Shown piece by piece: positions 9,917 to 26,821 of a stretch of DNA of 64,000 nt. The notes under the pieces are model-generated. The model did no database searches and was not told the origin of the DNA. It worked only from the letters and a program-made list of their open reading frames with translations. This stretch comes from Candidatus Bathyarchaeota archaeon. Lineage in GTDB: Archaea; Thermoproteota; Bathyarchaeia; Bathyarchaeales; Bathycorpusculaceae. Each line of letters starts with the position of its first letter. Within the stretch, counting starts at the first letter, position 1. Position numbers and translations under genes: made by a program. The stretch lies in contig CAVTBV010000009.1 of NCBI GenBank assembly GCA_963733095.1, positions 96,001 through 160,000 of the forward strand, written 5' to 3'.

Positions 9917-10252
9917 TTATTTGTAATGGGTTAAAGCTACAATTAGCCCAATTATTGCGCCAAGTAAAACCAGCAAGCCGCCCAGTCCACCGCCGATGAA
10001 TCCCACAATTAACAGCACTATAGCCCAGACAAGAGTAGTGACGCTTTTTGCACCAATTACCGCTATGACGCCGCAGATTAACATTACAATTCCACTGTAC
10101 CCAAAAGAGTAGACACTCCAATAGAAGAATGATGGTCCTCCGAATCCTATTGAAAGTAAACTCAGCAGCCCAAAGATTACCAAAAGAATGCCACCGACAA
10201 GCGCTAAGATATAAGCCACTTGCCCTAAAGAAGTTCGAGCCATTTTATCCAT
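9917..10252 (-). CDS. Small Gly-rich membrane protein
   Basis: About 4 hydrophobic segments. Confidence 0.7.
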   Translation of the reverse strand: MDKMARTSLGQVAYILALVGGILLVIFGLLSLLSIGFGGPSFFYWSVYSFGYSGIVMLICGVIAVIGAKSVTTLVWAIVLLIVGFIGGGLGGLLVLLGAIIGLIVALTHYK

Positions 10253-10475
10253 TCACCTCCTACCTGGATTACTTGTTGAGTGCAGTCAAAAGAGTCGGTT
10301 GTTTTGCCTTTCTTCTTTTTTTGCAGTGCCACTTTTTTGTAGGCTTCCGATATAAAATTAACACATGAAATAATCTCAAACCTCCGTCATTTTCTTATTA
10401 CCGCGAATTCTAGTGTTTATCTCACCTGCACTCAATGATTTCCAGTAGTTTCCTAAAGAAAAGAAAGTTTTTTGC

Positions 10476-10802
10476 TTATGATAATACGAAGCCGATAACA
10501 AAACCAACAACGAGCCCTAATCCTAGCGGCAGCATACCCATGAGAAGTACTCCATATTGTATTGCTATGGGACCGTATGTGTCTGCAATGCCTTTTAAGG
10601 CGCCAAGACTTAAACCGAAAAATCCAAAGTAAGCAACTACGACCAGTATAATGGCCGCTATAATCGCGATCTTCAGCATCTTGTGTACTAGATAGCCCAC
10701 GATAAGTCCGATAACAAATGGAATAATCATCAAAATTAATGGTGGAATACCGCCGATGCTTCCAGAGGTAATAAAATTAATAACTTGATCTATTGCACCC
10801 AA
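10476..10802 (-). CDS. Small membrane protein (FUN14-like)
   Basis: FVIGLIVGYLVHKMLKIAII...YFG...GLVVGFVIG. Confidence 0.65.
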   Translation of the reverse strand: MGAIDQVINFITSGSIGGIPPLILMIIPFVIGLIVGYLVHKMLKIAIIAAIILVVVAYFGFFGLSLGALKGIADTYGPIAIQYGVLLMGMLPLGLGLVVGFVIGFVLS

Positions 10803-10945
10803 AATTCACAACTCCAGACAAGTTACTTAGCGGTTCAAATTACTTATAAGCTAGTGTTGCTGTGCTCCTACAGTCACACAGCTATTTTTCCAAATGGTCC
10901 AATACTCATGCAAGTAAGAATAGTTGTTTAAGTTGGTTTTTGATA

Positions 10946-11380
10946 ATGGCTGCTCCAGATGATATAAAAAATATTCTTGGTTCAAACGAAAAGGTTGAGC
11001 TGTACATTGAAGAAAAAATTTATCATCCTCGAATTAACATTGAATCTGTGATAATTACTAATGAACGGATAATTTTTCGGCATCCTCATGCGCTTGGTTT
11101 GAAGAAGGATTACACCGATTACAGTTACAGAGACATCACAAACGTAACGTTGGACAAAGGAATATTGCGTTCAACCATCAAACTTGCACTTAAACACATG
11201 GAAGGATCGAAGGGAAGCCAGCAAGAAGGAGAAATTCTAGATTTAGGTAACTTGCCAAACGACCTTGCAGAAGAAAGATATGGTATCATCAGAGAAAATA
11301 TTGGCAAATTCCAATCGCCTTTTTCAACTGGTTATGCTAACATTCCAAACGCGGAAGCCGCGGGTTCAAATCCCTCCTAA
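10946..11380 (+). CDS. Bacterial-type PH-domain protein
   Basis: ILGSNEKV...IITNERIIF...YSYRDITNV.LDKGILRSTI; start chosen at MAAPDD. Confidence 0.75.
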   Translation: MAAPDDIKNILGSNEKVELYIEEKIYHPRINIESVIITNERIIFRHPHALGLKKDYTDYSYRDITNVTLDKGILRSTIKLALKHMEGSKGSQQEGEILDLGNLPNDLAEERYGIIRENIGKFQSPFSTGYANIPNAEAAGSNPS

Positions 11381-11392
11381 TGCGGGTTCAAA
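11354..11392 (+). repeat. tRNA T-arm-like fragment plus partial tandem copy
   Basis: gaagccgcgggttcaaatccc then gcgggttcaaa; overlaps the last codons (AAGSNPS) of the PH gene. Confidence 0.55.
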
Positions 11393-11524
11393 CCAAATAA
11401 CGAAAGTTTGTGGTTGGTGCATGACAGTCACAATATCTTATCTATCAAGCAGCCTATACTGTGTATTAAGAAATTGTATTGAGGCTTGAATAACTTAATG
11501 CAGTAAAATCAATGAAAGAAACAC

Positions 11525-13219
11525 GTGTGTTTAATGCAAAAGGAAGCAAAATTAAACTTGAACAAGAAAATATCAACAACTCTGCTCATATCAATTCTCT
11601 TAGCAAGCATTATAATTTTTGTGCTCCTTGGACCGGTAGAAATGGTCAAAGCAGACAACCAAAACAATAATTCAAACGGAGCCTCCACCTCTTGGCCAAT
11701 GTTCCATTCGGACCCAACTCATAGTGGTACAGGAACTGGCGGTCCATTACTTAATCCAACAGTACTATGGAAGTACAATACTTTTGCTGATGATTCAGGT
11801 CATGTTTATTCTTCTCCCGCTGTTGAAAATGGAGTCGTTTTCGTAAGCTCTTGGGATTTCAAAATCGTTTCCAAGAGTGTAGTCACAAATTACGGCAACC
11901 TCTATGCATTAAACGCTTCTAACGGCGACAAAATCTGGAACTGCTCAGTCGGACCAGTTACCTATTCTTCTCCTGCAGTTAAAAACGGGATTGTTGTAGT
12001 AGGTTCTTCGAGCGGTAACATTTCGGCAGTGAATGCTACTGATGGTAATCTTCTTTGGGCATACCAAACTGGCAGCAGCATTGAATCTTCTGCTGCAATC
12101 GTCAAAGACATAGTTTACATAGGGTCATTAGACGGCAATGTTTACGCTTTGAATCTTTTAACTGGTGTGAAAGTTTGGAACTCCACTATTGGCGCTGTCT
12201 ATTCCTCTCCTGCAGTTGTTAACAATGTAGTGTACGCTTGTTCTAACAATGGAGATTTCTGCGCTCTGAATGCCACTAATGGTGACCAAATCTGGAATTA
12301 CACCAGTCAAATATATTCCAACCATGGAAATTATCTCTACTCTTCTCCAGCAATCGCCAACGGCATGGTATACATGGGCTCGTATAATAATGACGCCTTT
12401 GCTTTGAACGCCACAAATGGAAAGTTAATTTGGAAGTACGCTACGGGCAGTGAAATTGCTTCATCTCCAGCAGTAATAAAGGGTATAGTTTACATAGGTT
12501 CATATGACGGCAATGTTTACGCTTTAAATGCCACCAACGGAGCAAAAATCTGGAGCATCTATCTCAACCAGATTGGTTGGTCGTCTCCCGCGGTTGCTAA
12601 CAATGTATTGTACATTGGATCAGAAGATGGTAATGTTTACGCAGTAAACGCTTTCAACGGTGCAGAACTTTGGAGTTACGATACTGGCAGTCTTCAACTT
12701 GATTCGTCTCCAGCGGTGGTTAATGGTATCGTCTACATTGGTTCATCGAATGGGTACGTTTACGCTTTTGGCACTCCTACACCTATTGTAACACCACCTC
12801 CAAGCCCAACTCCAATAATGACAGACCCCACTGCGACACCAACACCACCAAATCCAACACCAACGCCTATACCAACGGCTACATCCACTCCTCTCCCAAC
12901 CCCAACCGTAACTCCAATCCCTAACTTTACCGATCAAACATCGGCATCTACTCCTACGCCTTCACCGACCCCGACAACTACCTCAACACCTATTCCTATA
13001 TCCGACCCCACTCCTACTTCGACAGCTGCTACTACTCAGACATCTTCATCAACAGCTACAAACACTTCTACAGTTTCACCTATTCAATCCCACTCGCTCG
13101 CAGGAGTTGAAACGGATATTCTTCCTCATGAAGTCTTCTATTCCATTGCAGCCACAATCATAGCAGCCATTGCAGTCACAACGATAATAATACTCAGAAA
13201 AAAGAAAATAGAGCTTTAA
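11525..13219 (+). CDS. Secreted, C-terminally anchored PQQ-like (BamB-type) beta-propeller protein
   Basis: Signal peptide, WPMFH, repeated SSPAV..G.VYIGS.DG.VYALNA..G..IW blades, Pro/Thr linker, TM plus KKK tail. Confidence 0.9.
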   Translation: MCLMQKEAKLNLNKKISTTLLISILLASIIIFVLLGPVEMVKADNQNNNSNGASTSWPMFHSDPTHSGTGTGGPLLNPTVLWKYNTFADDSGHVYSSPAVENGVVFVSSWDFKIVSKSVVTNYGNLYALNASNGDKIWNCSVGPVTYSSPAVKNGIVVVGSSSGNISAVNATDGNLLWAYQTGSSIESSAAIVKDIVYIGSLDGNVYALNLLTGVKVWNSTIGAVYSSPAVVNNVVYACSNNGDFCALNATNGDQIWNYTSQIYSNHGNYLYSSPAIANGMVYMGSYNNDAFALNATNGKLIWKYATGSEIASSPAVIKGIVYIGSYDGNVYALNATNGAKIWSIYLNQIGWSSPAVANNVLYIGSEDGNVYAVNAFNGAELWSYDTGSLQLDSSPAVVNGIVYIGSSNGYVYAFGTPTPIVTPPPSPTPIMTDPTATPTPPNPTPTPIPTATSTPLPTPTVTPIPNFTDQTSASTPTPSPTPTTTSTPIPISDPTPTSTAATTQTSSSTATNTSTVSPIQSHSLAGVETDILPHEVFYSIAATIIAAIAVTTIIILRKKKIEL

Positions 13220-13235
13220 GAAAAAAGAGAAAATG

Positions 13236-13271
13236 CGGGTGATATATCCACTTTCGACGGGATTCAATTCC
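13236..13271 (+). repeat. Composite att-like site A (palindromic arm + 9 nt + degenerate T-loop)
   Basis: cgggtgatatatccactt-tcgacggga-ttcaattcc. Confidence 0.75.
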
Positions 13272-13596
13272 AACTTTGATTGGAAAAAGCTGAGGATTCG
13301 CCCTCGATCCCAAGTTAAGTAAGTTACTCCGACTCCAATTCCGAACTTTCTGCATGCCAAGTTTACTCAATTGTAAGGCCTCAGTCAAAAAATCGAAAAA
13401 TTAAGGTCTTTCTGAAAATCCGTCCAGAAAAAATCCACTTGGGAACAAGCTGCCGGGAATAAAGTAACGCAGGAATTGGTATTCGTCGAATGCCGTAAAT
13501 ACACCTCTGAATAGCCTATCTTTGTTATTCCTTTAAAAAAACTACCCAAATCAAGAATTATGAAAATGCGAATCGGAAAACATAAAAAAAGGGTTT

Positions 13597-13646
13597 TGGT
13601 TGAAATCTCTTTCAGGGCGCAGGATCAAATCCCTCCCCGCCCGCCA
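13597..13646 (+). repeat. Composite att-like site D (degenerate arm + 9 nt + tRNA 3' end with CCA)
   Basis: tggttgaaatctctttca-gggcgcagg-atcaaat-ccctc-cccgccc-g-cca. Confidence 0.7.
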
Positions 13647-13843
13647 CAAGAAAATCTGTATCCGCAGTCACGACAGGAGTACAGCTGAACATTCCCTTTT
13701 TGTGTCTGTCTTTTTCCGTCTTTGTAGTTTCTCTGACTGCCACACTCGGGGCATGTTACCTTTGGTTTGATATAATTACCGTTGAGAACATCCTTTGAGA
13801 TGATTTTTCCACAATGTGGACAATTGAAGACTTTTTGTTACAT
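13625..13843 (-). pseudogene. Zn-ribbon gene fragment (InsA-like / integrase N-terminal-like)
   Basis: ATG-TAA, then QKVFNCPHCGK...VTCPECGSQRNYKDGKRQTQKGNVQLYSCRDCGYRFS; reads into site D. Confidence 0.65.
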
Positions 13844-13897
13844 GCTTGTTCATCCCGTATTTTTTGCCAAGTATGCCCAAAGAAAAATGGGGTTTTG

Positions 13898-13944
13898 CGA
13901 GTGAAACCTCTTCTCTTCCTGGGTTCAAATCCCCCCCCAGTCCA
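13898..13944 (+). repeat. Composite att-like site E (degenerate arm + 8 nt + tRNA-Ala-like 3' end)
   Basis: cgagtgaaacctcttctc-ttcctggg-ttcaaat-ccccccccagtcca. Confidence 0.65.
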
Positions 13945-14228
13945 CTTCAACATCAATTTTCTGATTCACAGTGTTCTAATAAAATCAAATCCAACATCAC
14001 CCGCAAAAACGTGTTAGTGCGCAGGTGTAAAAGTCTCTAACGCAGCGAATTAAGAGAAAAGAGGGTTTTCTGAGGCTCTGGACTTCATGGAGAAAAGAGC
14101 GAAATGCAGAAACGCTCTTCAACTATGACAAGGTGAATATCATCCAAAGCCTACTCAGCCCCATTTATTTCTCCGCTGTTTCTTTAAACAAAAAAAGGGA
14201 AAGGTGTTTGTTGTTTGGTTACTTTTGT

Positions 14229-16877
14229 TTATGCTCGTTTCTTTATGACTATCAATGCAAGTATTGCCCCGACTATTGCGATTGCAACAATAATTCCTGT
14301 TATTCCGGGCAGTATGTATGTGTCAGCCATTGAATGTGTTGGTTCTTGAGTTGACGCTGGGGTTGCTGCTGCGTCTACTGCAAACGATGTTTCTGCAGAT
14401 GATCCATAATATGAGTTTGAGCCTGCAAAGGTTGCTATGACAGTGTATTTGCCGGTGATATCAGGTGTCCATTGTAGGCTGTAGGCTCCGCTTGCGTCGC
14501 TGACTGTGTTTCCAATACTGCGGTAGTTACCGTTTGAATCGATAACCGCGATGCTGATTGGGACGCCTGTTGTGTTTGTCGGTTTATCTTGCTGCATGTA
14601 CACGTATTCCATCCATAGCTTCATGCTTGCGTCAGATACACATGGCACTCCATTGGGGAATTTTGCTGCTTGCTCTTCTTGTGTTGTTCCTGCAGCGATA
14701 TCGCTGACTGTGCCTCGTATTACTAGGCTTTGGCCTTGAGTAACTGCAGCTAATGGTGCATCAACTGTTAGTTTGCTGGCGCCTTTGCCAACTGAGTAGA
14801 CTTGCATGTCATAGATGTTTAGGTATGTGAAGTATCCGTCTGCAACAATGTCGTACTGGCCAACGTACATGCCTGTGCCCATTCCAGTGAGAGTCCAGAT
14901 TTCTTCGCCTGTGGTGGCATTTAAGCATCTGTATTGTGCGTCTTTGTAGAGTGGTTGGTTTGGTGAATGCTCTGTTGTTCCGACGTAGACTTTTCCGTCA
15001 GCGATGACGTCTATGAATAAGGGGTAGTGGCTATAGACTGTGTTTTCGCCTGAGTATGTACTGTTGCCTTCTCCGCCTCTGCCATAACTCCACAGCAAGT
15101 CACCTGTTGCGTCATTATAGCAGTAGACTATACCGTCGTAACCTGCAGCGTACAGATTACCATACGCACTAAGTGTGTCTCTTCTCAGGGTATCCCATTC
15201 TACTACGGGTGTTTTTGCAGTCCAGAGGTGGTTTCCGTTGTCAAGGCTGAAGCCGTTGAATTCTAGGGTTTCTTTATCTTCTGTGACAAAGGTATTTGCA
15301 ATTGAATCAACTGCTACAAGTACTCTGGTTACGTTGCTGTCGGCTGGTGCATAATACTTTGTCCATAGAACGCTGCCTGCGCTGTTGGGGTCTATTTTTA
15401 CCAAGGTTATATTTGCGCCGGAGCTTTCTGCTCTTGGACCAGCTCCCAAGTTACCTTGGAGGAGGAGTAATTTGTCACCGACAATTACGTCTCTATAGAT
15501 AGTCCAGCCTTGTCCTGTAAGCGATGATACGGATACGTTCCAATCGTACATGCGGGAGTCGGTTGCATTGAAAGATGATGTCGGGTACCAGTTGCCTGCT
15601 CCAATCTGGCCTGCTGATAGTTGAGTATATTTTGATGAGTTCCATTCGCTCAGGTAATACGTGGGGTTTGATGTAGTGCCGAGGTTTGTCAATGAGTAAA
15701 TAAGGTATTCGCCACTCGGACCTGCTGCTGATGCGCCGTTTGCAGAGTTAGCTGCTAAAGTGGCAGATGCGGCTGATCCTGAAGGAACGTTAGTTAGGCT
15801 CATTCCGGTGAGTACGCCTGTTCTAGCATCATATGCTCTCCAGACTGTTCCGAGACCAGTCACTGTGGTTGTTGCTATTAGTAGACCGTTGGGTAATACA
15901 CCATGTTGGTTTCCATCTTCGTAGGCGTACAGGTAGCCGAAGCTTGGTACTATAGATACGCCTGTTGCGGTTGTGTTGATGCGCCAATTTTCTTTGCCTG
16001 TTTGCAGGTCTACTGAAACGTAGTCTCCGCCGCTGCCTGAGTTGCCATATGGTTCTTGATAGAAGAGGTTTCCCTGCATAACGATAGCGTTACTGAAGCG
16101 GGGATTGTATGAGCTGCCTGTGTAATATCCTTCACCTAGGTTTGTGGTTGAAGTCCCGCCGACAACCCCGCCAAATTGCAATGGTTTGGTCCACATAACA
16201 TGTGAAGTCTCAGGTCCTGATCCATCTTTCTGGTATCTACCGTAACCTGAACCACCTGTAGCGGTAGCACCTGTGCGGATGTAGGGTCCATTTAGCCAGT
16301 TGGAGGATATTAAGAACCAGTCCGAGTTTTCACCGTTTATTGGTCTACTCCAGTATTCGCTTGGAAGAGCAGCGCTTGGCGATATACCTTCAGTTTGTTC
16401 TTCCTGCACAGTTAGTTTCGTTACCGCTTGCGCAGGCTGATAGACGTCGTTTTGATAGGGACCGCTCCAGGTGTGTGTTTGTCCAGCATAGTTGAAAGTC
16501 ATGGTATAGGTTCCTACTGTATCAGGGGTAAACGAGTATGATTGTATGCCTGTTGTATCTTGAACTACAGCCCAAGTTTCAGTCTTGCTTGTCCCGTCCG
16601 GTTGAGTAATAGTCAATGTGTAGTCATGTCGACGAACGTCGTTGGTCACCAACGCACCATTTAAGGGTATATCAACCCACATGTAAATGTACACTGTCTG
16701 ACCAATCCCCACAGGATTTGGAGCAGCAGATACATAAGCGTATGATTTAATGTCCCAAGCAGGTGTATGTCCACTAGCAGTAGATAGAGTCGTCAATGGA
16801 ACAGCAATGGATACTACTAGAAACAACGTAATAATTGACAGTGCCTTTTTCGATAATGTATTTTTTTGTAGATTCAT
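14229..16877 (-). CDS. Large cell-surface beta-propeller/Ig-like protein (PQQ-like repeats), membrane anchored
   Basis: Start chosen at MNLQK; signal peptide, PNPVGIGQ, LPSEYWSRPI, EHSPNQPLY, C-terminal Ig-like domain, TM plus KKR; paralog of 38182-40881. Confidence 0.88.
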   Translation of the reverse strand: MNLQKNTLSKKALSIITLFLVVSIAVPLTTLSTASGHTPAWDIKSYAYVSAAPNPVGIGQTVYIYMWVDIPLNGALVTNDVRRHDYTLTITQPDGTSKTETWAVVQDTTGIQSYSFTPDTVGTYTMTFNYAGQTHTWSGPYQNDVYQPAQAVTKLTVQEEQTEGISPSAALPSEYWSRPINGENSDWFLISSNWLNGPYIRTGATATGGSGYGRYQKDGSGPETSHVMWTKPLQFGGVVGGTSTTNLGEGYYTGSSYNPRFSNAIVMQGNLFYQEPYGNSGSGGDYVSVDLQTGKENWRINTTATGVSIVPSFGYLYAYEDGNQHGVLPNGLLIATTTVTGLGTVWRAYDARTGVLTGMSLTNVPSGSAASATLAANSANGASAAGPSGEYLIYSLTNLGTTSNPTYYLSEWNSSKYTQLSAGQIGAGNWYPTSSFNATDSRMYDWNVSVSSLTGQGWTIYRDVIVGDKLLLLQGNLGAGPRAESSGANITLVKIDPNSAGSVLWTKYYAPADSNVTRVLVAVDSIANTFVTEDKETLEFNGFSLDNGNHLWTAKTPVVEWDTLRRDTLSAYGNLYAAGYDGIVYCYNDATGDLLWSYGRGGEGNSTYSGENTVYSHYPLFIDVIADGKVYVGTTEHSPNQPLYKDAQYRCLNATTGEEIWTLTGMGTGMYVGQYDIVADGYFTYLNIYDMQVYSVGKGASKLTVDAPLAAVTQGQSLVIRGTVSDIAAGTTQEEQAAKFPNGVPCVSDASMKLWMEYVYMQQDKPTNTTGVPISIAVIDSNGNYRSIGNTVSDASGAYSLQWTPDITGKYTVIATFAGSNSYYGSSAETSFAVDAAATPASTQEPTHSMADTYILPGITGIIVAIAIVGAILALIVIKKRA

Positions 16878-16922
16878 TTGTTTTTTTCTCCTTTTGTGGC
16901 TTAATGTTTGTAAATATAACAG

Positions 16923-16949
16923 TAATAAGGCTGGCTCACCTATCGTGAG
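16923..16949 (-). promoter_or_regulatory. Palindromic operator CTCAC-N5-GTGAG beside a TATA-like box, copy 1
   Basis: taataag-gctg-gctcacctatcgtgag, about 50 bp upstream of the surface-protein start. Confidence 0.6.
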
Positions 16950-17126
16950 TACAAAATTCAGCCATAGTTCCACAAAAAGAGGCAAAGAAGAAAAATATAA
17001 ATCAAAGACAACAACGAATAACGATGCATTAGTGTACGATTGTAGAAATTGTCTTTTTATTTTTGATTTTCTAGCAGACTCATTTTTTTCCTTCTTTTTA
17101 TGAACCTTTAAACATGTAAGAAGCGC

Positions 17127-17153
17127 TAATAAGCTTCGCTCACTTATCGTGAG
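17127..17153 (-). promoter_or_regulatory. Palindromic operator CTCAC-N5-GTGAG beside a TATA-like box, copy 2
   Basis: taataag-cttc-gctcacttatcgtgag; same spacing as copy 1. Confidence 0.6.
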
Positions 17154-17322
17154 CTCGAAAAACCGTTTATTGGCTAATCTTCACCGAGTATTTTGCCAGC
17201 TACCTTTTTGTAACTGGCGTCAAAGAGAGGATGCCAATAAGTCACACAAATCTGTCGTAAGTATAAAATATTAAGTAAACTATACGAGATTGTTAAAGAT
17301 ACACTAATGGTGAATTTACACG

Positions 17323-18015
17323 ATGGACCCTTATGCTTATCAAACATTCCGAGTTATCTATGAAGTTACTTCGGCTATTTTTTGTTTTGTTCTTGTAAGA
17401 TTCATGATTAAACCCTACCAGATCACTAAGGAGAGTCGATACCTTGGACTGCCTCTCGGATTTGGGTTTCTTGGAGCAACCTACGCTTTATCTTCCTTTG
17501 TTTACTTCAAACCATATTTTTTTGGCAGTGGAACAATATATTTTCAACTCGTAGTAAGAACTTTCGCATTTATTTTTCTGTGCGTTACTTATTATTTTTC
17601 AAGGAAAAGTGGCGATAGTAGAAGGCTCTGGAATACTACTTTGGCTTTATTAATTATCGCTTTTGTAGCTTTATTTCTGCTCGTTACTATTCCTAATGTT
17701 GCTCTACCTAGTTATCAGCTTACAAGTACCTTTACCAGATTCTTCAATCTAATTTGCATCGCTTATCTTTGTGCCCACACTCTTAGAAGCCATATAGAAA
17801 AGCCCGATCCAGAAACGCTTTGGATCCCATTTGGTTATTTTCTTCTGGGAATAAGCCAGTATTCACTAATCATTTATTCTATAGACAATAGTATGTCTGC
17901 GTGGTGGGGGGCACTGGCAATTCGTTGGGTAGGTCTAGCCGTGTTTCTTTTTGTCACAATCAAATCTTTTTACGGCAACAAAAAGAGGAGAATAAATGAA
18001 ACAAATCGCACGTAG
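17323..18015 (+). CDS. Polytopic (about 7 TM) membrane protein, possible sensor
   Basis: About seven hydrophobic segments; overlaps the downstream wHTH gene. Confidence 0.75.
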   Translation: MDPYAYQTFRVIYEVTSAIFCFVLVRFMIKPYQITKESRYLGLPLGFGFLGATYALSSFVYFKPYFFGSGTIYFQLVVRTFAFIFLCVTYYFSRKSGDSRRLWNTTLALLIIAFVALFLLVTIPNVALPSYQLTSTFTRFFNLICIAYLCAHTLRSHIEKPDPETLWIPFGYFLLGISQYSLIIYSIDNSMSAWWGALAIRWVGLAVFLFVTIKSFYGNKKRRINETNRT

Positions 18016-18274
18016 AGACAGAATGAAAATTTATGGCGACCTTTTGTCAATATTGTACGCCGAAAGTAGAGAAGAAAAAATAGTGTTAACGCATGTTCAA
18101 GTACAGATTAGAGTTCCTTTTGATAGGTTAAAAACTTACATATCAGAACTTAATGATTTAGGCTTAATTGAGGATCAGACTTCGCTTAAGCTTACAGAAA
18201 AAGGTAAACAGTATATCATTGAATACAAGAAAGTTCTTGATTTTATGAAACGCATGGGCGTAGCCTACCGGTAG
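17996..18274 (+). CDS. Archaeal winged helix-turn-helix regulator
   Basis: RRDRMKIYGDLL...LTHVQ...LKTYISEL..LGLI...LTEKGKQY. Confidence 0.85.
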   Translation: MKQIARRDRMKIYGDLLSILYAESREEKIVLTHVQVQIRVPFDRLKTYISELNDLGLIEDQTSLKLTEKGKQYIIEYKKVLDFMKRMGVAYR

Positions 18275-18718
18275 ACAATACCAAAATAGTTGAATCAATG
18301 AATGATACTACTACTCTATAACCGATACTTTGAATTTTATGGATTTAGAGGAAGGTACATTGGTTAAGCTCTGCGTATTTATTGGGGAGGTCAGAGTAGA
18401 AAGACCTCACTTACTGATAGGTTTGTTTTTGTGATGGGTTGTTTTAGGATGACAGTATTTGTTCTGCTTTTTGTTCGTCAAAATTGTGTTTAGACAGTAG
18501 CTTGTGCCATTCGAGGTGAGCGCAAAGTAAGTATCGGGTGATTCTTGTAAAACCCCAATTCGTTGGCAAACATAACTCGCTCTTGACTCTTGCCCATGGA
18601 ACATATAAAATGAAGTAAGAGTTAGCATTAAAAATGGGAATTGCGGGTGTACACTTCACTATTAGTTAGCTTTTGAGATAGTTTGATATACCACACAAAA
18701 CATGTGGAGTGTGGTTGA

Positions 18719-20095
18719 ATGAATTTGAGTGAACAAACGTTCCTTGACTCAGTATCAAACCCAAAAACAAAAAAATGCTACAGATACGGACTAAAAATAT
18801 TCTGCCAATGGTACGGACAAACAGCAGAACAAATCCTTGAACTAAGAAAAGACGACCTAACACAGCGCGTCGGGGAAAACCTGATTGAATACCGAAACCG
18901 AGCATCAAGATTTGAAAAAGAAATAGAAAAATTCCACACATACCTTTCAACAACAAAAAGCATCAACACCGCAAGAGTCCAAACATTAGGAATAAGACAA
19001 CTCTTCAGATACTATGAAATGCCTATGCGCTTTAGAAATGGAAGCAAGATAGCTAAAACCGTCAAAACAACCAAAAACTTTCCCCTAACAATCGAACACG
19101 TACGGAAAATGTTTGACGTAGCAAACCTAAGAGAAAGAGTAATTCTGAGCACCGCTACTGATTTAGGCTTAAGAATAGGCGATTTCATGAACCTCAAAAA
19201 ATCAGACTTACCTTCATTAAATCAAGAATCGCCCATTTCCTTTGAAATAATGACTGAAAAAGAAAACGTTTTAGCTTGTGGATTCTTAAGCGAAGAAACA
19301 GTTGACCTTCTTAAAATCTATCTTCCAACATTAGACCACAAAAAAGATAATCCCTACCTTTTCCCTTCAAACGGAAACAGAAGCATATCAGACGAATGGT
19401 TAAACCGTCTGCTACAGAACTTAGCAAACAAAGCAAAAATAAACTTAAACGGCAAAAGAGTAACCTTTCACTGCTTTAGAAAAATGTTCCTCTCAGCATC
19501 CATTGACAGCGGAATAGGCTTAACAGCTGGTAAAAAATTGTGCGGAAAAACAATAGCCCAATCAGACGACACATACCTAACCGTCGTTAACCTCAAATCA
19601 AAATTCCTACAAATCAAGAAATTCTTAACCATTAAAGAACAGCCAAACCTTGAAATAGAGCAAATTGAACCCTTAAAAAATGCGATAACTAAGCTTCAAA
19701 GCGATTTAACAGAGCAAAAGCTAATTACTTCTGTAATTTCTGAGGCGCAAAACAATAGAATTAAAGACATTGAAAAGAAACTTTTTTCCGTACAGCCTGA
19801 TGTGGAATGGGAGAAATATCTTTCAGAACATCCAGACGAATTTGAACGATTTGAAAAACAACATGAAGAACGTCTGAAATGGGGAAAAGAGCATCCAGAA
19901 GTCGTTAAAAAGCAAACAGAGCAAATTGACAAGAAATTTAGAGAATATGAAAAATGGCGAGAACAACATCCAGAATTAAAAGAACAAGAAGAAAAAACAT
20001 ATGTTGAACATCTTGAAGACCGAATAGTTGAATTAGAAAAAACTCTGCAAGAGCTTGCAGACTTTGTTAGAAAAAGACCAGAAGGAAATACTTGA
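18719..20095 (+). mobile_element. Tyrosine recombinase/integrase with C-terminal coiled-coil extension
   Basis: GLRIGD (R), TEKE (K), HCFRK (HxxR), LCGK, DDTY (Y nucleophile); N-terminal core-binding domain. Confidence 0.92.
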
Positions 20096-20133
20096 GTGGA
20101 TTTTAAAAGCAGAAGGAGGAGAATTAATTATTC

Positions 20134-20682
20134 ATGTCAAACCAGTCAAAGCCAAGTAACTCTTGCAAACCAACTAAGAAGCCGCCTCGCCCAATTCCTA
20201 AAAATAGGTTTCCCGAAGGCATTCAATTATGTAAAGACAATATTGCCGACTTCTTAAGTGATGCCCGCAATGTTTTAGCCAACGGTAAACCCTACCATGC
20301 CTATATCTTGTTTGAATTTGCCTTAGAAGAATTTGGTAAAATAATTATGCTAAAAGAAGCAAGAGACGACCCAAACAATAAAACTAATGCAGCGCAAGTT
20401 CCTGAGCATGTTTTTACTAACCATCGGGGTAAATGCGATAAGGCGATTGATGTTTTAGGTACGGATTTAAAAACCCTCTACAATGGTATCTGGGCTAAAG
20501 GTATATGGGCACCAGGCATTTGGGGAGAAAGCGAGGTAGAAGTGGGTCATAACACGCGACTAAAGTGTGCCTTCGTTGATTATCTCAATAACAACTGGAC
20601 TATTGGCGACAACGCAATCACAAAAAGCAACTTGACCAGTTTAATAGAAAAATTGGATGCCCGCACCAAATTGGAGAAATAG
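20134..20682 (+). CDS. AbiV-family (HEPN-like) abortive-infection/toxin protein
   Basis: N...FLSDA..L...ALEEFGK...NHRGK...RLKCAFVD matches the AbiV motif pattern. Confidence 0.72.
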   Translation: MSNQSKPSNSCKPTKKPPRPIPKNRFPEGIQLCKDNIADFLSDARNVLANGKPYHAYILFEFALEEFGKIIMLKEARDDPNNKTNAAQVPEHVFTNHRGKCDKAIDVLGTDLKTLYNGIWAKGIWAPGIWGESEVEVGHNTRLKCAFVDYLNNNWTIGDNAITKSNLTSLIEKLDARTKLEK

Positions 20683-20697
20683 CCATTAAAGGACTTG

Positions 20698-20732
20698 TCA
20701 ACACAATGCGGGGCTGATATGCGCCCCTCTTT
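20698..20732 (+). repeat. 35-bp direct repeat, copy 2
   Basis: tcaacacaatgcggggctgatatgcgcccctcttt. Confidence 0.9.
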
Positions 20733-20746
20733 TCTTTTCGTCGTCG

Positions 20747-21058
20747 GCAAAAAAGCCCCGAACATCAGCCCAACGGGTGACACGCTTAAATGTTGGAAAT
20801 TTGCAGCAAATTTACAACTTTTAAGCGTTTCATTCGGGGCTTTTTTGCAGTAGTAACCAAAAACAACCGTCTGGTGTAGCATCAACAACAAACGGTCGAT
20901 TATCACAATGCGGTTCTTGACTGCGTTGCCCTCACAATGTAGGGCAACATAGGCAAACAAAGGTGCTCTGCGACATTTCCGCACATACGGCAATGTCCAG
21001 AGCACAGCAACCAACCGTTAACCATTGGATAGCGGAACCGTCGGGGCGAACCAACGGT
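20747..21058. ncRNA. Highly structured non-coding region (candidate ncRNA or ssDNA origin)
   Basis: Perfect 16-bp inverted repeat 20747-62/20833-48 enclosing hairpin 20782-20828; further hairpins 20866-96, 20925-48, 20963-21005, 21015-35, 21037-58. Confidence 0.55.
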
Positions 21059-21286
21059 CGCCACGATAAAAGCAAAAATAGTGTTAAGGCTTAATTCTGC
21101 AAACCAAAAGAAGCACGGCAAGAGAATTTAAAAGAATAGACAAGTTCTCATAGCTTAGGTCGTTCGTCGTCGTCTTCACTTGATATAATAACACAAATCT
21201 CGACATGAAACAATGGATAATATGTGTGTAAAATAAGACATAAATTGAGGAAATGGGATAGGGTATTGTGATGGTTGAAGCATACT

Positions 21287-21430
21287 TTGAAAGTCTTATT
21301 GAAAGTAACTACCACTGAGAACGGTTCTCGAATTTGCAGTGTTCCTATGAAGAGATTAAAACAGTTGACTTCTGGTCGTAAGTTGGTTTGGTCTTTGGAA
21401 GGGGAATGGCTTGTTTTGGAGTCGTGTTGA
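21287..21430 (+). CDS. 47-aa AbrB/MazE/SpoVT-like protein, copy 1
   Basis: MKVLLKVTTTENGSRICSVPMKRLKQLTSGRKLVWSLEGEWLVLESC (TTG start); many synonymous differences from copy 2. Confidence 0.65.
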   Translation: MKVLLKVTTTENGSRICSVPMKRLKQLTSGRKLVWSLEGEWLVLESC

Positions 21431-21580
21431 TTGAAGGTAGTTTTGAGGATTTCTAAGAAGGGGAGTCAAGGTGGTTTTCATGTTGGCAGTGTTCCTATGA
21501 AAAGGCTGAAGCGGTTGGCTTCTGGTCGTCAACGCTTTTGGAAGCTTGAAGGAGATAGTTTGGTTCTTCAATCTTCTTGA
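21431..21580 (+). CDS. 49-aa AbrB/MazE/SpoVT-like protein, copy 2
   Basis: MKVVLRISKKGSQGGFHVGSVPMKRLKRLASGRQRFWKLEGDSLVLQSS (TTG start right after the TGA of copy 1). Confidence 0.65.
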   Translation: MKVVLRISKKGSQGGFHVGSVPMKRLKRLASGRQRFWKLEGDSLVLQSS

Positions 21581-21795
21581 TTCTACCAAAAATATGAAAA
21601 GAAATAAAAAAAAATAGATTTTATACCTTATCTCTCTCCATTTAAACCTATCTCATGGACTCAGAAAAACAAATACTGAAGGATTTCCATTTGAGAAAGT
21701 GGATATGTTTGACATTTTCTCACAACAACCTAAACTGAATTTAGTCAAGAGACTTTGACAAGCATATTTTTTAGGTAGGTTAAACCAGTGGTTAA

Positions 21796-22551
21796 GTGAT
21801 TGCTATGGGCAAGAAAGCAGTTGCTGTAGGAATAATTCTCGTTATTCTGTCATTATCTTTACCTTTAGCATTTGGGTATTTTGAAACCAATATTATAGAT
21901 ACCTCATGGACTGGCAGTGCTACACAATTTTTGAATAATGCACAACCTTATCCACAATGGAAAGACGAATACACTCTGAATGCTTACACCATAACTCTGT
22001 TTGAAAATGGGACAAGCACTTTTGTTAATGCTACTAATGGAGATAGCTTTTCTTCTTATCTTCTAAATGTAATGACAAGAGCTGACAGTCAGATGAGCTC
22101 CGTGAGTGATGCTTTTGTTAATAATGTAACTCAGAATGATAAGGTAGTTTATTTACGAAGCAGATTGGGCACTAACTTTGCTCAGGCAGGAATTTTTGTT
22201 TGGGATACATATTTTGTATTGGAAGATAACCTGTATCAAGGGAGTTTAAAGGGAACAATATTCATAGAGCATGATTCTGACAATGTACGCACATGGCAGC
22301 ATTGGGCTATACTACTAGGGCAAAGCCCTACACCTAGTCCTACACCTGTTCCAACTCAAAACCCTACACCAACACCAACTTCTCAACCCACAGCTAACCA
22401 AAATAATTCACCTACACAAAACCCAACAGCCAATCCCACTCCAACTCCTACCATTCCAGAGTTTTCTTGGTTTATTATTTTGCCTTTGTTCCTTGCAATA
22501 CTCTCTATTGTTGTCCTAATTAGAAAGAGAAAAGTACCTTTGATAAAGTGA
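21796..22551 (+). CDS. Secreted surface protein with Pro/Thr linker and PEF-CTERM-like sorting signal
   Basis: Signal peptide; PTPTIPEFS + TM + RKRK. Confidence 0.8.
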   Translation: MIAMGKKAVAVGIILVILSLSLPLAFGYFETNIIDTSWTGSATQFLNNAQPYPQWKDEYTLNAYTITLFENGTSTFVNATNGDSFSSYLLNVMTRADSQMSSVSDAFVNNVTQNDKVVYLRSRLGTNFAQAGIFVWDTYFVLEDNLYQGSLKGTIFIEHDSDNVRTWQHWAILLGQSPTPSPTPVPTQNPTPTPTSQPTANQNNSPTQNPTANPTPTPTIPEFSWFIILPLFLAILSIVVLIRKRKVPLIK

Positions 22552-22628
22552 AAGCCTTTTATTTAATAATCACATTAGCAATGTTGGTATATCAATAGCT
22601 TTAGAAATCAAACTAATAATAAAGTGTT

Positions 22629-22675
22629 CGGGTGATATCTCCACTTGAACGTAGGTTCAAGTCCCACCCCGCCCG
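22629..22675 (+). repeat. Composite att-like site B (arm + 9 nt + tRNA 3' end)
   Basis: cgggtgatatctccactt-gaacgtagg-ttcaagt-cccac-cccgccc-g. Confidence 0.8.
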
Positions 22676-22823
22676 TTTTGAGTCGAGGGATTATTTTCGT
22701 TTTCTGAATGATAAGACCTTCTCTTCCTACTATACCCCAAGATTTTGAAAGGTCTTGCGTACATAGCAGCATCAAAAAGGATATAAAGAGAGACTGACGA
22801 CCTCAACTCAGGAGATAAACCCG

Positions 22824-23138
22824 ATGCCATTTTGCAATAAATGTGGAAAAGAGATATCTGATGATATGAAATTCTGCCCAAATTGCGGAACGCCCATTGG
22901 AATGGAGGAAGAGAGCTTTTCTGTTTCCTCTGAAGACTTGGTCCAGAAAGTCAAAGAATTGTTTCATGAAGGAAATGTCAGGCGAATAACTATAAAGAGC
23001 TAAGAAGGCAAAACTCTGCTCGACATTCCCGTTACAGTCGGAGTTATAGGAATTGTCCTAGTTCCCTGGCTTGCCGCGATTGGAGCCATAGCGGCTTTAG
23101 CTACGAATTGCACTATAGTGGTTCAAAGGCAGAAATGA
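22824..23138 (+). pseudogene. Zinc-ribbon + DUF4342-like protein with an in-frame TAA
   Basis: MPFCNKCGK...FCPNCG...DLVQKVKELFHEGNVRRITIKS*EGKTLLDIPVTVG...AIAALATNCTIVVQRQK; stop at 23001-23003. Confidence 0.8.
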
Positions 23139-23487
23139 GTTAAAAGCAAAAGGTCTTCCACGAATCGGGCGCCATAGGATAAGTCAGATTCAAAAATAAT
23201 TATTGTATTTTATACGTTCTGATGATAAGATATTTTCCGGAAGGACCTTCCTCTATGGGGCCCAGATTTTGGAGGCCTTGGTGCCGCCTTTTGCTTTATA
23301 ACAGCGTACGTTGCAGGATCCATGGGCATTTTATGCACTTAAACACATACACTTATAAGCTGTGTATGCACTTATGTACTAATGTGAATAAGCGGGGACA
23401 AAACATGACAAACAGAAAAATCGAATACACAAATTGGTTACTCGCTTATTTCAACAATATCTAACCAGCAAAAAGAAGTGACTAAAA

Positions 23488-23631
23488 TTGGGCCGCATCA
23501 ACGTTGACATCTCAGACGACTTAGAAAAACAGCTCAGATTAAAAACCGTAGAGCAATTCGGAGGCAAAAAAGGCGACTTATCCAAAGCGGTCCAAGAAGC
23601 AGTAAAAACATGGGTCGAAATAAACCAATAA
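23488..23631 (+). CDS. 47-aa ribbon-helix-helix (CopG/Arc-like) regulator
   Basis: MGRINVDISDDLEKQLRLKTVEQFGGKKGDLSKAVQEAVKTWV (TTG start). Confidence 0.75.
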   Translation: MGRINVDISDDLEKQLRLKTVEQFGGKKGDLSKAVQEAVKTWVEINQ

Positions 23632-23792
23632 AGTCGTCCCTCCTCAAACCATCAATAACTATATTATAAGAAGCCTAGGTAAAAGGCCCGGGTAAGCCAG
23701 CTAGCCTGGAACACCTCACATGAGGATTATGGGCAATCTAGCTGCAAAAACCCTTTTTAGAATGTTTTCCAAGCAAACAACGATAATCTCTT

Positions 23793-24017
23793 TTAGCTGT
23801 TACCTTTCGGTACATTATTAGCAAGTTCGCTTTCGCTTCTTAATTGTCGTTTTAGATAAGCAACTACTTCAAAACTTTGATTAATTTGAAGCGCAACAAT
23901 AGAAACCAATTCCCACCCATCTAAACCATATTTATTCAACAACTCTTCTTGTGTTTTGACACCGGCATCCAGGATTCCTTTCACCAAAGCTATTGAGACA
24001 TACTCCCATTTTGTCAT
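23793..24017 (-). CDS. DUF4177-like protein
   Basis: MTKWEY...LNKYGLDGWELVSI...AYLKR. Confidence 0.75.
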   Translation of the reverse strand: MTKWEYVSIALVKGILDAGVKTQEELLNKYGLDGWELVSIVALQINQSFEVVAYLKRQLRSESELANNVPKGNS

Positions 24018-24733
24018 GTTTGAACCTCTAACAACATTATTTTTCTCTAGAACTGAATTAACCAAGTAGTATTTTTCTTTTGAGGTTTATTTAGTTGAGA
24101 TACAGAAGACGTCAAAAACCCCTAAAAAGCGGGTCGGATGGAATTAAGAGACTTTGGCGCAACCAATTTTTGGAAAGAAAATAAAAACCCCTGCAGCAAC
24201 TACTTATCGAGAACGAAGAAACCAAGAACCCTGAAGACACACGGACCAAAATACATATTCCTTTTGAAAAATATTCTATCATGGTAAACAATAAAAGAAG
24301 TGTATAACAAGATGGAAATCATGAAAAAATCGATAAACGTCACAAATGGAGAAGAACCCCCTAACCCTAAACCAAACCCTAACCCTCAGCCAAATCCAAT
24401 CCCAAATCCAATTTAGTAAGAGCTTTTGCTTCATCTATGAATCCTATGAATCTTAAAACCTGAAGGATGTAAGCGTCATTGCCCTCACCAAATCCGGGCT
24501 ACCTTCCTTTAACTGTAATTTACTGCTGAACGAGTTTAGCAGCATAGACTTATAGCAGAGGAATTGTGCTGACTTAGTAGACGCAGGCATAGCATTTTTG
24601 GTTGTCGCGCGTAACTCGGCAGTGATAGGGAATCCCGCGGGGTATGGACGTAGACGCACTATAGTAGTCCACGAAGAACACCACGATTAATATCATTAAC
24701 GTGAAAAGATTACAATTAAAAAAAGGGAATATG

Positions 24734-24780
24734 CGGGTGATATATCTACTTTGCGAGGGGTTCAAATCCCGCCCGGTCCA
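24734..24780 (+). repeat. Composite att-like site C (arm + 9 nt + tRNA-Ala-like 3' end)
   Basis: cgggtgatatatctactt-tgcgagggg-ttcaaat-cccgc-ccggtcc-a; CCGGTCC-A fits the G3:U70 acceptor of archaeal tRNA-Ala. Confidence 0.82.
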
Positions 24781-24972
24781 TAAAGCGATCCAAACCCTGC
24801 AGAGTTCAAAACCTATTGCGGATTTATACCGTTTGAGATGTGGGACTGAGGCTTAGGACCACGCGGCAATTTCAATATTACTCTTCGTATTATGCGATGA
24901 TTAAAAAAAGAAATAGGGTGTAGGCGTAGTACCTTTGCAGGTTGCCCTCCCTTGTGCTTCAGATAAGCCAAT

Positions 24973-25542
24973 CTATTTGGGAGGAGGGGCTACTTGGGTT
25001 GCAGTTATTTTTCGGTGATAGAATCTGGCGGCAATGCTTAATCCTGTGGCGACGAAAGCCAAGTAGAAGGGCCAATTGAGAGCGGCTGAGACGTTAACGC
25101 TGGTGTTTGAATTTTGACGAGTAATTGTAGTTGCACCGATCAGAGGCAAACTGAAGCCTCCCAAGGATTGTGCTATTAGAGGTAAAGCAACTATTACTGC
25201 AATAAACGCTACGAGTATGTACAGTGGTTTTTTGTATCCAAATCCCAGTAGATGCTTTGAGTAAGGCGCAGTTGGTTTTACGGAGTAGATCGTTAGTGCT
25301 ATTCCGCCTGCCAGCAGGGTAAGTAAGCATGCTATGTTCAAGGCCAAAATCAAGGGTATTGCAACTGAAGTCCCAGAAATTGAAAGGTTAACGTTAACTG
25401 GAGAGAAATCAACCTGAGCATTCACTGGGGTTCCGGCCATGAACTGCCACCATGGAACAAATAGCGAAATAACAACCAGCAACAAAGTTGAAATTCCTGC
25501 AGCCAACGCAATAAAATTAATTTTGGTTTGCATCATAATCAC
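24973..25542 (-). CDS. Hypothetical membrane protein
   Basis: About 4 TM helices; SLFVPWW motif. Confidence 0.7.
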   Translation of the reverse strand: MIMMQTKINFIALAAGISTLLLVVISLFVPWWQFMAGTPVNAQVDFSPVNVNLSISGTSVAIPLILALNIACLLTLLAGGIALTIYSVKPTAPYSKHLLGFGYKKPLYILVAFIAVIVALPLIAQSLGGFSLPLIGATTITRQNSNTSVNVSAALNWPFYLAFVATGLSIAARFYHRKITATQVAPPPK

Positions 25543-25543
25543 C

Positions 25544-26203
25544 TTAACTTATTATTTCGATGTTACCGATATCCTGTGGTGACGAGCCCAAGTTTGTTAC
25601 GCCATTAACAGTAATTGCACCGTTAATTACTGAAACGTCCACTGATGAGAAACCGCTGTAGTTCTGGGCTAAGTCAGCTTGACCTTCTTGTGTCAAAGCA
25701 CCCGAAACAGTTACAGAAACAGTTTGACCAGAACGAACCGTGACAGGGGCATTGTTGAGGCTTAAAGTTCCCAATTGATATTGATCCGCTGTGATTTCAA
25801 CTGCTCCACCCAATGAATTTATCGTCGCATCTTGGTTATCATTGTTGGTTATACTGAAGGTTAACGTTATCGTATTTTTAGACGTGTCAATTTGTCCGCT
25901 AATGAAAGATGGGTTTAATCTGTTTGAAGAAATATCATTGTTGTTATTGTTATCCCCGTTATTTCCATTGCCGTTATTGTTGTCGCCATTTGGGGCGGTG
26001 ACGATGTTTTGATTATTATTGCTGTTCACGCTGTTGCCATTATTATTGGAGTTATCGTTGTTGTCCGAATGCATGAGTTGTTGCAGTTGAGGAGTGACTA
26101 CCATTTGGGGCAAATTATCAAGGTGCATTACCACCACTGCTCCAATTGGTCCTAAAACGCATCCAATGCTAATTAACGCCAGAACAATACGTAACACTTG
26201 CAT
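25544..26203 (-). CDS. Membrane-anchored hypothetical protein with Asn-rich linker and beta-rich domain
   Basis: N-terminal TM, poly-Asn tract, beta-sandwich-like C-terminus. Confidence 0.7.
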   Translation of the reverse strand: MQVLRIVLALISIGCVLGPIGAVVVMHLDNLPQMVVTPQLQQLMHSDNNDNSNNNGNSVNSNNNQNIVTAPNGDNNNGNGNNGDNNNNNDISSNRLNPSFISGQIDTSKNTITLTFSITNNDNQDATINSLGGAVEITADQYQLGTLSLNNAPVTVRSGQTVSVTVSGALTQEGQADLAQNYSGFSSVDVSVINGAITVNGVTNLGSSPQDIGNIEIIS

Positions 26204-26743
26204 CTTAGCTCATCTTCTCGTAAGCCACGATATTTTCATTATCCAACATTTTAAATCATCAAAAAATATCAACCTTCTCCAATTAATTATGACTTATGAA
26301 TTGGCAATTCATGTTCATACCTTGGATAAATTCATCCTAGGTTAAATGAGCCAGAAAGGACTCATCCGGAGAAACTTGAACCGCTTCAGGGCAAATCCTC
26401 TTTTTAGATCTTTAGGCAAAAACATGATCGAGACAAAAAATTGGCTGTTATTTCCAGGGACTCGTTTTCTTTATGGCAAGGTGCAGATTATTTTTTTTGA
26501 CCTCTCCAAGCTGAACACATGGCTGCTACAACGCCGAATTTGGCTGCTATTATGAAAACTTCTCTTAGCGCTAAAATGAAAGGATTAGCTATGCTCTTGA
26601 GGGAAATAGTTGTCACTAATGTCAGAGCTATATGGTAAGAATATTGAATGCCGACTGAGATTTAGATAATAATTTAAATAAGTAACCACTTGAGAAACAA
26701 AATTCTAATATTAAGCATTGCAGTGTGTTTATCAAACACCCGT

Positions 26744-26821
26744 GGGCCGGTCGTCTAGCCTGGTTAGGACGTTGGCTTTACGAGCCAAAGGTCGCCGGTC
26801 CGAGTCCGGCTCGGCCCACCA
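26744..26821 (+). tRNA. tRNA-Val(TAC), intronless, CCA encoded
   Basis: Acceptor GGGCCGG/TCGGCCC-A-CCA; anticodon arm TTGGC-TTTACGA-GCCAA; T arm GCCGG-TCCGAGT-CCGGC. Confidence 0.95.

Follow-up and report, generated by a model that had tools for sequence, protein, structure and literature searches.

The window analysed here is a 64,000-nucleotide stretch (C9:96001-160000) of the 2.84-Mb, 16-contig genome of a Candidatus Bathyarchaeota archaeon (G000, hereafter the own genome); positions without a contig name are window positions. Its plus strand carries five composite sites, in each of which an A-tract and a palindromic arm, or an arm-like segment, are followed by a motif resembling the T-loop of a tRNA. 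A small zinc-ribbon open reading frame (ORF) lies between sites 2 and 3, and a tyrosine-integrase element splits site 4. The features are as follows.

13221..13275, + strand: site 1; A-tract 13221-13233, arm 13235-13253, T-loop-like TTCAATT 13263-13269
13583..13650, + strand: site 2, degenerate; A-tract 13583-13590, arm-like segment 13598-13613, ATCAAAT 13624-13630, tRNA-Arg(CCT) 3′ end including CCA
13625..13837, − strand: zinc-ribbon ORF relic of ~65 amino acids (aa), between sites 2 and 3, with a stop at codon 2
13880..13954, + strand: site 3; A-tract/GGGG 13880-13893, arm subfamily GCGAGTGAAACCTC 13897-13911, T-loop 13924-13930
18630..18649, + strand: site 4, left half; A-tract, GGG, AATTGC and GGGTG, the GGGTG at 18645-18649 being the duplicated crossover
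18650..22629, + strand: integrase element of 3.98 kb, inserted in the arm of site 4
22630..22675, + strand: site 4, right half; GGGTG and the remaining arm, T-loop TTCAAGT 22656-22662, Arg-like acceptor strand
24720..24780, + strand: site 5; A-tract 24719-24725, arm 24733-24751, T-loop 24761-24767, tRNA 3′ end

Anatomy and tRNA origin of the sites

All five plus-strand sites lie where a first-pass annotation of the window had placed them (13236, 13597, 13898, 22629 and 24734). The exact 18-nt arm consensus occurs at 13236, 22629 and 24734; three matches in the window compare with 0.06 expected by chance, and none of 100 shuffles reached this number. By inspection, the palindrome of the sites measures 13-17 nt and is accompanied by the tRNA T arm. 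Site 1 matches the arm profile, which was built from 22 copies, with E = 2.8e-9, and its right side carries no tRNA-derived 3′ end. Site 2 is too degenerate for the profile; it has a paralogue at C15 30564-30500 (86% identity over 65 nt), and its module has conserved counterparts in seven other genomes, which show the arm more clearly. Site 3 is a degenerate member that the profile picks up at E = 0.0008. Two of the sites had been described as closely following the stop codon of a surface-protein gene. This holds for site 1, which sits 16 nt after the stop codon (13217-13219) of a PQQ-propeller surface protein gene (11525-13219) on the same strand, and fails for site 3, which lies ~280 nt from the stop of an opposite-strand gene (14229-16985). 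A same-strand gene ending directly before the arm is not a rule across the sites.

The layout is the same in every context that we read, both in the own genome and in 30-odd contexts from relatives. An A-tract, a G-run and TTTGC precede the palindromic arm GCGGG(T/A/G)GAYATCTCCAY, which is followed after 6-9 nt by GGTTCRAATCC and a variable acceptor-like strand. The left part of a site is thus a conserved non-coding arm of ~40 bp, in which the centre of the palindrome reads GATATC or GTGA..TCAC and lies ~9 nt before the T-loop. The right part consists of the T-loop, the 3′ strand of the T-stem, the acceptor strand and up to ~12 bp of tRNA flank. Two further arm subfamilies share this design: the GCGAGTGAAAYC-type, which includes sites 2 and 3, and one with a TGGCGATATCGCCA palindrome, of which there are three copies.

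Matching the 3′ pieces to the host tRNAs identified Arg(CCT), Ala(TGC) and Leu(CAG/TAG), including flanking sequence. Site 2 shares 24 identical nucleotides with the tRNA-Arg(CCT) gene on contig C14, encoded CCA included. The right part of site 3 is the 3′ end of tRNA-Ala(TGC) together with 10 nt of genomic flank; site and gene have a 35-bp core in common, and the identity begins at GGGTTCAAATCC. Because such pieces carry genomic flank of the tRNA genes, they derive from DNA and not from mature tRNA. The acceptor strand of site 5, CCGGTCC-A, implies a G3:U70 pair and points to tRNA-Ala(CGC), an assignment that we infer from this strand, as contig C7 ends within the cognate gene. For site 4, none of the host tRNAs matches exactly; its acceptor strand is Arg-like, and its T arm resembles Leu(TAA). 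The absence of a cognate tRNA gene, as first annotated, is correct within the window, where tRNA-Val(TAC) is the sole tRNA gene, and incorrect genome-wide, the Arg(CCT) and Ala(TGC) genes being located on other contigs. Among 24 T-arm/3′-end look-alikes in the genome that are not tRNAs, 14 were seen by eye to have an upstream arm of family 1, 1b or 2. As had been proposed, a single arm family has been joined, within the T arm, to 3′ ends that stem from several different tRNAs.

The 5′ strand of the T-stem had been noted to pair imperfectly, and the comparison with tRNA genes bears this out. T-stem pairing was scored at 21 of 36 arm matches (those whose T-loop fitted the pattern) and compared with that of 42 tRNA genes; the mean is 2.86 of 5 pairs at the sites vs 4.67 in the genes, and the stem is fully paired at 1 of the 21 sites and in 37 of the 42 genes. 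The broken stems place the junction inside the T arm and show that the sites are not tRNA-like genes. ARAGORN and Rfam call no tRNA or RNA family at any of the five sites, and single-sequence folds reveal no common structure. The sites are hybrid DNA junctions, not RNA genes. Split, permuted or mini-tRNAs were considered and set aside, the apparent 5′ acceptor pairing being confined to Leu-type copies. tRNA genes that seemed to lack a 5′ end, and so suggested split tRNAs, merely carry introns in the D-loop. Non-canonical introns occur in tRNAs of the own genome, and those of tRNA-Arg(CCT) (C14:4966-5100, minus strand) and tRNA-Leu(TAA) (C14:10340-10474) are long and lie in the D-loop region; ARAGORN overlooks both genes, and Rfam covers model positions 10-63 only.

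The family is widespread. A pattern search tolerating up to two mismatches, with the reversed pattern as control, was run on the own genome, on 24 congeners and on 16 genomes from other families of the order. The pattern has 26 matches in the own genome vs 1 for the control, and it is present in 18 of the 24 congeners and in 6 of the 16 other genomes. The arm profile gives 27 matches in the own genome at E <= 0.023 and 36 at E <= 0.5, so that about 27-36 composite sites exist in 2.8 Mb. Two functions of the arm were considered and rejected. As a Shine-Dalgarno sequence with a gene start on the plus strand it would open ORFs of 1-52 aa at 42 matches, with one exception, a fusion to a helix-turn-helix (HTH) gene; none of the corresponding ORFs in relatives is an integrase. 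As an outward promoter it would be expected beside divergent ORF starts, which occur at 7 of 36 sites compared with 4.6 +/- 2.1 at random positions.

Several variants of the arm deserve mention in their own right. Five minus-strand copies (C3 3584, C7 85256, C9 265513, C13 28759 and C13 19671) end inside the T-loop (GGGTTCGA) and then share a module of ~50 nt with a GCAAC..GTTGC hairpin and a stretch resembling a tRNA 5′ end. At C7 85256, a T-loop without arm and an Arg-like tail follow 450 nt on, as if a small element occupied the T-loop. A second composite combines an arm variant (GGGAGACATCRCCACT) with a conserved 24-nt box (AGGGTATGTTCC.CCGAAC...) at C16 58639, L085 9944, and L086 7823 and 2809; in the relative G016 it often lies ~90 nt upstream of a canonical site. 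Finally, a 435-nt duplicate with 97% identity is found at C7 59262 and C7 83463 (minus strand), and also at L065:5960-6500. It begins 16 nt before the arm, ends with the A-tract and G-run in an inverted copy, and contains an antisense ORF of ~57 aa.

An integrase element inserted in the arm of site 4

The copy at 22629, annotated at first as a whole site, represents a right half: a 3.98-kb insertion has split the site, and the left half lies at 18630-18649. The insertion contains the following genes.

18719-20095, + strand: tyrosine integrase ORF of 458 aa (PF00589)
20134-20682: AbiV-like HEPN gene (PF18728, E = 2.9e-11), possibly defence cargo
21796-22551: ORF

The 458-aa integrase scores 43.1 bits against PF00589 (curated cut-off 27.1) and stays under the cut-off of every NCBIfam Xer or integron model; its relatives all come from metagenome-assembled genomes (MAGs) of Bathyarchaeia. 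The element ends in imperfect 43-nt inverted repeats (18651-18693 and 22585-22627), the top inverted repeat of the region, which are flanked by GGGTG at 18645-18649 and 22630-22634. A paralogous element with the same junctions is present on contig C13. In the relative G003 the homologue of this split site is uninterrupted and aligns to both junctions of the window. We also compared 25 related integrase loci, reading the output by eye: a half-arm lies ~90 nt upstream of the integrase start at 17, the right junction ..CTTC-GGGWG-ATATCTCC occurs at 8, and joined ends, that is an attP arrangement, occur at 2. At L054 and L047, two relatives of the 458-aa integrase, one of them on a contig labelled Heimdallarchaeota, such an attP arrangement is seen ~90 nt upstream of the integrase: GGGAG and the left end follow the right-end motif without a gap, suggesting that the element can be circular or tandem.

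A second, unrelated integrase family thus uses the arm as its attB, crossing over at GGGWG, and has split site 4. The integrase at 18719 had been proposed as the enzyme acting at the T-loop. Its element has inverted ends of its own, and its crossover falls at GGGTG inside the arm; since this family crosses over within the arm, the 458-aa integrase is not behind the T-loop junctions. Public reads that share words with the region come from two wetland runs (shares 0.35 and 0.05) and yield low-depth contigs. In run X1 these contigs give near-zero cover over 18416-22321, with both flanks covered and no contig bridging the gap.

Directly to the right of site 4 lies a module of ~1 kb (22740-23781) that encodes a frameshifted zinc-ribbon/DUF small protein, of 104 aa in the copy on C15. 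It recurs at no fewer than six places; one lies immediately behind tRNA-Cys on C10, another within the tRNA-Val duplication of the relative G060.

Zinc-ribbon integrases, arrays and rearrangement

The own genome has 20 matches to the tyrosine-recombinase family (PF00589). Six or seven of its integrases form a subfamily with an N-terminal zinc ribbon like that of IS1/IS1595, and members are convergent with the genes of tRNA-Phe, tRNA-Pro, tRNA-Leu(TAA) and tRNA-Ala(TGC). The integrase at tRNA-Ala(TGC) is cut by the end of contig C16, where its C-terminal half follows the tRNA gene. In one case the pair is on the same contig: tRNA-Leu(TAA) is followed by a convergent zinc-ribbon integrase and, 17.6 kb on, by a Leu(TAA) fragment joined to a family-2 arm. 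The 17.6-kb island also holds a Cys-type site.

The zinc-ribbon ORF between sites 2 and 3 (13625-13837) aligns with the N-termini of these six to seven tRNA-adjacent integrases. It runs antiparallel to the Arg fragment and terminates exactly at its end. The whole unit, in which the ORF is enclosed by an arm with T-loop and Arg fragment on one side and an arm with T-loop and Ala fragment on the other, is also found in seven other genomes. In the own genome, a further complete copy of the ORF lies at C9 264527-264664, and the start of a third, ~35 nt from an arm with an Ala(TGC) fragment, is cut by the end of C9 at 267335. Across genomes the stop codon is TGA, TAG or TAA at the same codon, and all five longer database homologues stop at the same place. 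The ORF family therefore represents a stand-alone gene of ~65 aa and not one half of a split integrase.

The segments between sites hold ordinary genes and no integrase. The cargo includes an ABC transporter, a SOUL protein, a PNPOx protein, a PLP decarboxylase, a GltD-like oxidoreductase and large PQQ/Ig surface proteins. The system is not confined to this locus: both the own genome and relatives have ordinary arrays of the same sites that are anchored at tRNA genes. In the own genome, sites with Leu fragments come after tRNA-Leu(TAG), at +5.2 and +6.5 kb, and in G003, and likewise in G016, tRNA-Ala(TGC) is followed by two sites. Arrays that are not bounded by a cognate tRNA do exist as well, that of the window included. 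Fragment types can be mixed within one array, as in C9:256947-267303 (Ala, Leu and others) and in the window (Arg, Ala and Arg-like).

At least one break in synteny coincides with a site, namely site 3, whose right flank is kept in G060, where the left side is unrelated; the homologue of this flank in G060 adjoins a different arm, and the tRNA-Ala(TGC) gene of the own genome shares the core only. The native neighbour of tRNA-Ala(TGC) is now found on a contig other than that of the gene itself, which implies rearrangement between sites. On a larger scale, the window contains a variable island (~7900-26690) that interrupts a block colinear in G060 up to window position 7888. Its right-hand boundary is the following gene, which is cognate to none of the sites.

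26744-26821, + strand: tRNA-Val(TAC), intact

In G060 the colinear block is followed by a hybrid tRNA-Val, 4.85 kb of sequence and an intact tRNA-Val. These two copies (G060:C14, L070, 11079-11157 and 16007-16084) occupy the locus orthologous to the window tRNA-Val. Shared sequence in the hybrid covers ~45 nt upstream of the gene and its 5′ two-thirds; from the T-loop onwards the tail is foreign, and the 5′ acceptor strand is altered to match that tail. Relative to tRNA-Val/Usp, the homologue of window block 1-7600 has the opposite orientation in G054 (L071) and G022 (L072), where ~12 kb of unrelated DNA separates the two. The tRNA-Val locus is a rearrangement hotspot in the genus. We rejected tRNA-Val as the anchor of the window island, as no 5′ or 3′ remnant of it occurs elsewhere in the window. 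Outside the array, the window also has a fluoride riboswitch at 42461-42538 on the minus strand (Rfam RF01734, 39.6 bits against a gathering score of 34).

Origin of the sites and comparison with known systems

The explanation that we favour, and consider probable, is that a family of integrative elements endemic to Bathyarchaeia targets tRNA genes and that the sites are its attR/attP-type junctions. The attP of such elements would consist of the conserved arm and a tRNA tail, and a tyrosine recombinase would cross over within GGTTCRAATCC. Because this segment is nearly identical in most tRNAs, many of them, and older scars too, could serve elements with one arm as recombination partners. Integration again and again, loss of integrase genes and recombination from site to site would then leave arrays of integrase-free cargo segments of 0.3-8 kb, in which surface proteins, transporters and enzymes had been captured, and some arrays, that of the window among them, would have been displaced from the cognate tRNA. 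A partner repeat at an intact cognate tRNA is absent from the window and is seen at Leu(TAG) and Leu(TAA) in the own genome and at Ala(TGC) in G003 and G016. The hybrid structure of the sites, the descent of their 3′ pieces from tRNA genes, the spread of the family, the insertion in the arm and the presence of ordinary tRNA-anchored arrays are direct observations; we infer which recombinase acts at the T-loop, what the palindrome does and in which order the events took place. The enzyme crossing over at the T-loop would most likely be the zinc-ribbon integrase family, and the palindrome is likely to be the binding site either for the zinc-ribbon N-domain or for the stand-alone zinc-ribbon protein. 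This reading stays within known archaeal biology.

Several observations weigh against this explanation. An integrase beside an att site is seen at tRNA-Leu(TAA), where the arm is of family 2, and at tRNA-Ala(TGC), where the sole adjoining integrase is cut by the contig end, and zinc-ribbon integrases are absent from every family-1 array that we examined. The intervals C9:224581-233400, C9:256900-267371 and C7:83400-86100 contain none of the 20 PF00589 matches, and no integrase lies within 19 kb around the tRNA-Ala(TGC) array of G003 or G016. Conversely, the sequence searched near the full-length zinc-ribbon integrases at tRNA-Phe (C5) and at C16:18.7 kb has no family-1 arm. With integrases absent from the family-1 arrays, the link between enzyme and site draws on one family-2 example and on domain homology. 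Conservation of the arm across the order is not expected of mere scars and calls for active source elements, of which none was found. Neither the low-depth read contigs nor a scan of IMG/VR revealed a family-1 element with an excised or episomal attP; in IMG/VR, four contigs matched the arm (two classed as proviruses, one with the arm at the contig end and one probably coding) with no clear episomal attP and one weak integrase match only. The 435-nt duplicates share the arm and the right side while their left flanks are unrelated, which is not predicted if, as in a simple model, the arm forms part of the left segment.

A rival explanation is an active, integron-like platform, which we regard as possible and clearly the weaker candidate. 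Here each integrase-free segment would carry one arm and T-loop site, the equivalent of attC, and would be mobilised by an integrase encoded in trans; circles would re-insert at tRNA T-loops or at existing sites, the equivalent of attI, and arrays would grow and shuffle continuously. This is consistent with arrays of 3-6 sites whose segments of 0.3-8 kb hold 1-3 ordinary cellular genes and no integrase, with the mixture of fragment types in single arrays, with the Cys site inside the Leu(TAA)-bounded island and with the order-wide conservation of the arm. The unit around the zinc-ribbon ORF, with one arm and an Arg fragment before it and another arm, an Ala fragment and native Ala flank after it, fits the insertion of a small circle into an older scar. 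However, the low-depth read contigs contain no circle junction or alternative join; the single joint, from 14170 to 19427, has a shorter side of 23 letters and is not credible. An integron-type integrase is also missing: the integron integrase model TIGR02249 gives 19-48 bits for three zinc-ribbon integrases against a cut-off of 265 and has no match to the 458-aa integrase. Cargo genes run in both orientations, no promoter role for the arm is apparent, and tandem integration, decay and rare rearrangement could produce every pattern seen. A cassette system built on tRNA anatomy, in which arm and T-loop form the cassette site and the arm doubles as the landing pad of a second integrase, therefore remains a tentative proposal. 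The same doubt attaches to it as a whole, with a tRNA T-loop or an earlier scar as the dock and a zinc-ribbon integrase and its stand-alone helper supplied in trans. If true, the system would stack and shuffle surface-protein and metabolic genes, and the nested insertion would make it a two-tier recombination platform.

The geometry of the zinc-ribbon ORF recalls remnants of 'suicidal' integrases of the SSV/pT26-2 type, with the ORF as Int(N) and the arm as the start of Int(C): the ORF is antiparallel to a tRNA fragment and ends exactly there, in two complete own-genome copies and in seven relatives, and pT26-2 is described as having the same arrangement (PMC7253208). We nevertheless consider this origin unlikely. 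No ORF reads through the att site into an integrase at the 42 own matches or at any of the fetched loci, the reverse strand of the arm meets a T-tract within ~25 codons, and no Int(C) begins at any arm. The stop of the ORF is conserved, with five of five longer homologues ending there and no fused homologue, and third codon positions hold no excess of the substitutions seen in the arm. Slightly less probable still is a functional RNA or cis-regulatory module, such as a 3′-end processing signal, a terminator or a promoter, that was spread by duplication. The palindrome beside a T arm, the A/T tract, the position of site 1 just after a stop codon and the high conservation of the arm are what such a module might show, but the broken T-stems, the lack of a shared fold and of any tRNA or Rfam call, and the inconsistent relation to neighbouring genes on either strand speak against it. 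Moreover, the fragments include genomic tRNA flank rather than a CCA-ended mature sequence, and the integrase element targets the arm precisely.

Integrons consist of an IntI integrase, an attI site and attC cassettes, most of which have no recombinase of their own and end in imperfect-palindrome sites. The arrays described here are similar in that short gene-bearing segments, mostly free of recombinases, end in an imperfect palindrome. They differ in the absence of an IntI-type integrase, in the nature of the site, which is a duplex hybrid of arm and tRNA 3′ end and not a folded attC, in the two orientations of the cargo and in the anchor, which is a tRNA gene instead of an attI beside intI. 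'Gene capture' in archaeal chromosomes was reportedly described by She and colleagues in 2001, and Int-pTN3 is said to rearrange chromosomes between tRNA-like sites (Cossu and colleagues, 2017). A similar recombination of relaxed specificity between tRNA segments could displace arrays and invert blocks, such as the inverted block of G054 and G022.

Parallels are also found among archaeal integrative elements. Tandem arrays at tRNA genes that arise by re-use of att sites have been described in Thaumarchaeota, Thermococcales and Sulfolobales (PMC6563490, PMC8371274). These arrays resemble those of Bathyarchaeia in that the att core is the 3′ part of a tRNA, the site is re-used, integrase genes are lost and cargo is captured. 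They differ in that here one non-coding arm of ~40 bp is common to sites from many tRNAs throughout the order, tRNA types are mixed, arrays can lie far from any cognate tRNA and the arm serves as attB of a second family. For the pT26-2 family, whose integrases act on many tRNAs, the authors surmise that the conserved T stem-loop is the core site (PMC7253208). The pT26-2/SSV elements share with the present sites the range of tRNAs targeted, the surmised core, an antiparallel integrase-related ORF that abuts the att site, and hybrid sites from successive events. The present sites differ in that the integrase gene is not split, the zinc-ribbon ORF is stand-alone with a conserved stop, and a non-coding arm extends beyond the att site. 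The literature searched, supplements excepted, contains no description of an order-wide shared arm, of integration targeted to such an arm or of a stand-alone zinc-ribbon gene at an att site.

How the abundant, uncultured Bathyarchaeia acquire genes is almost entirely unknown. A signature that marks dozens of acquisition junctions per genome provides a direct map of the accessory genome, which is rich in surface proteins here. The arm signature also helps in finding the recombinases responsible and in asking whether tRNA T-loops are a general docking site. Finally, the family of the 458-aa integrase, with a pair of occupied and empty sites and a 5-bp crossover, is a candidate for biochemistry and possibly a tool for these organisms.

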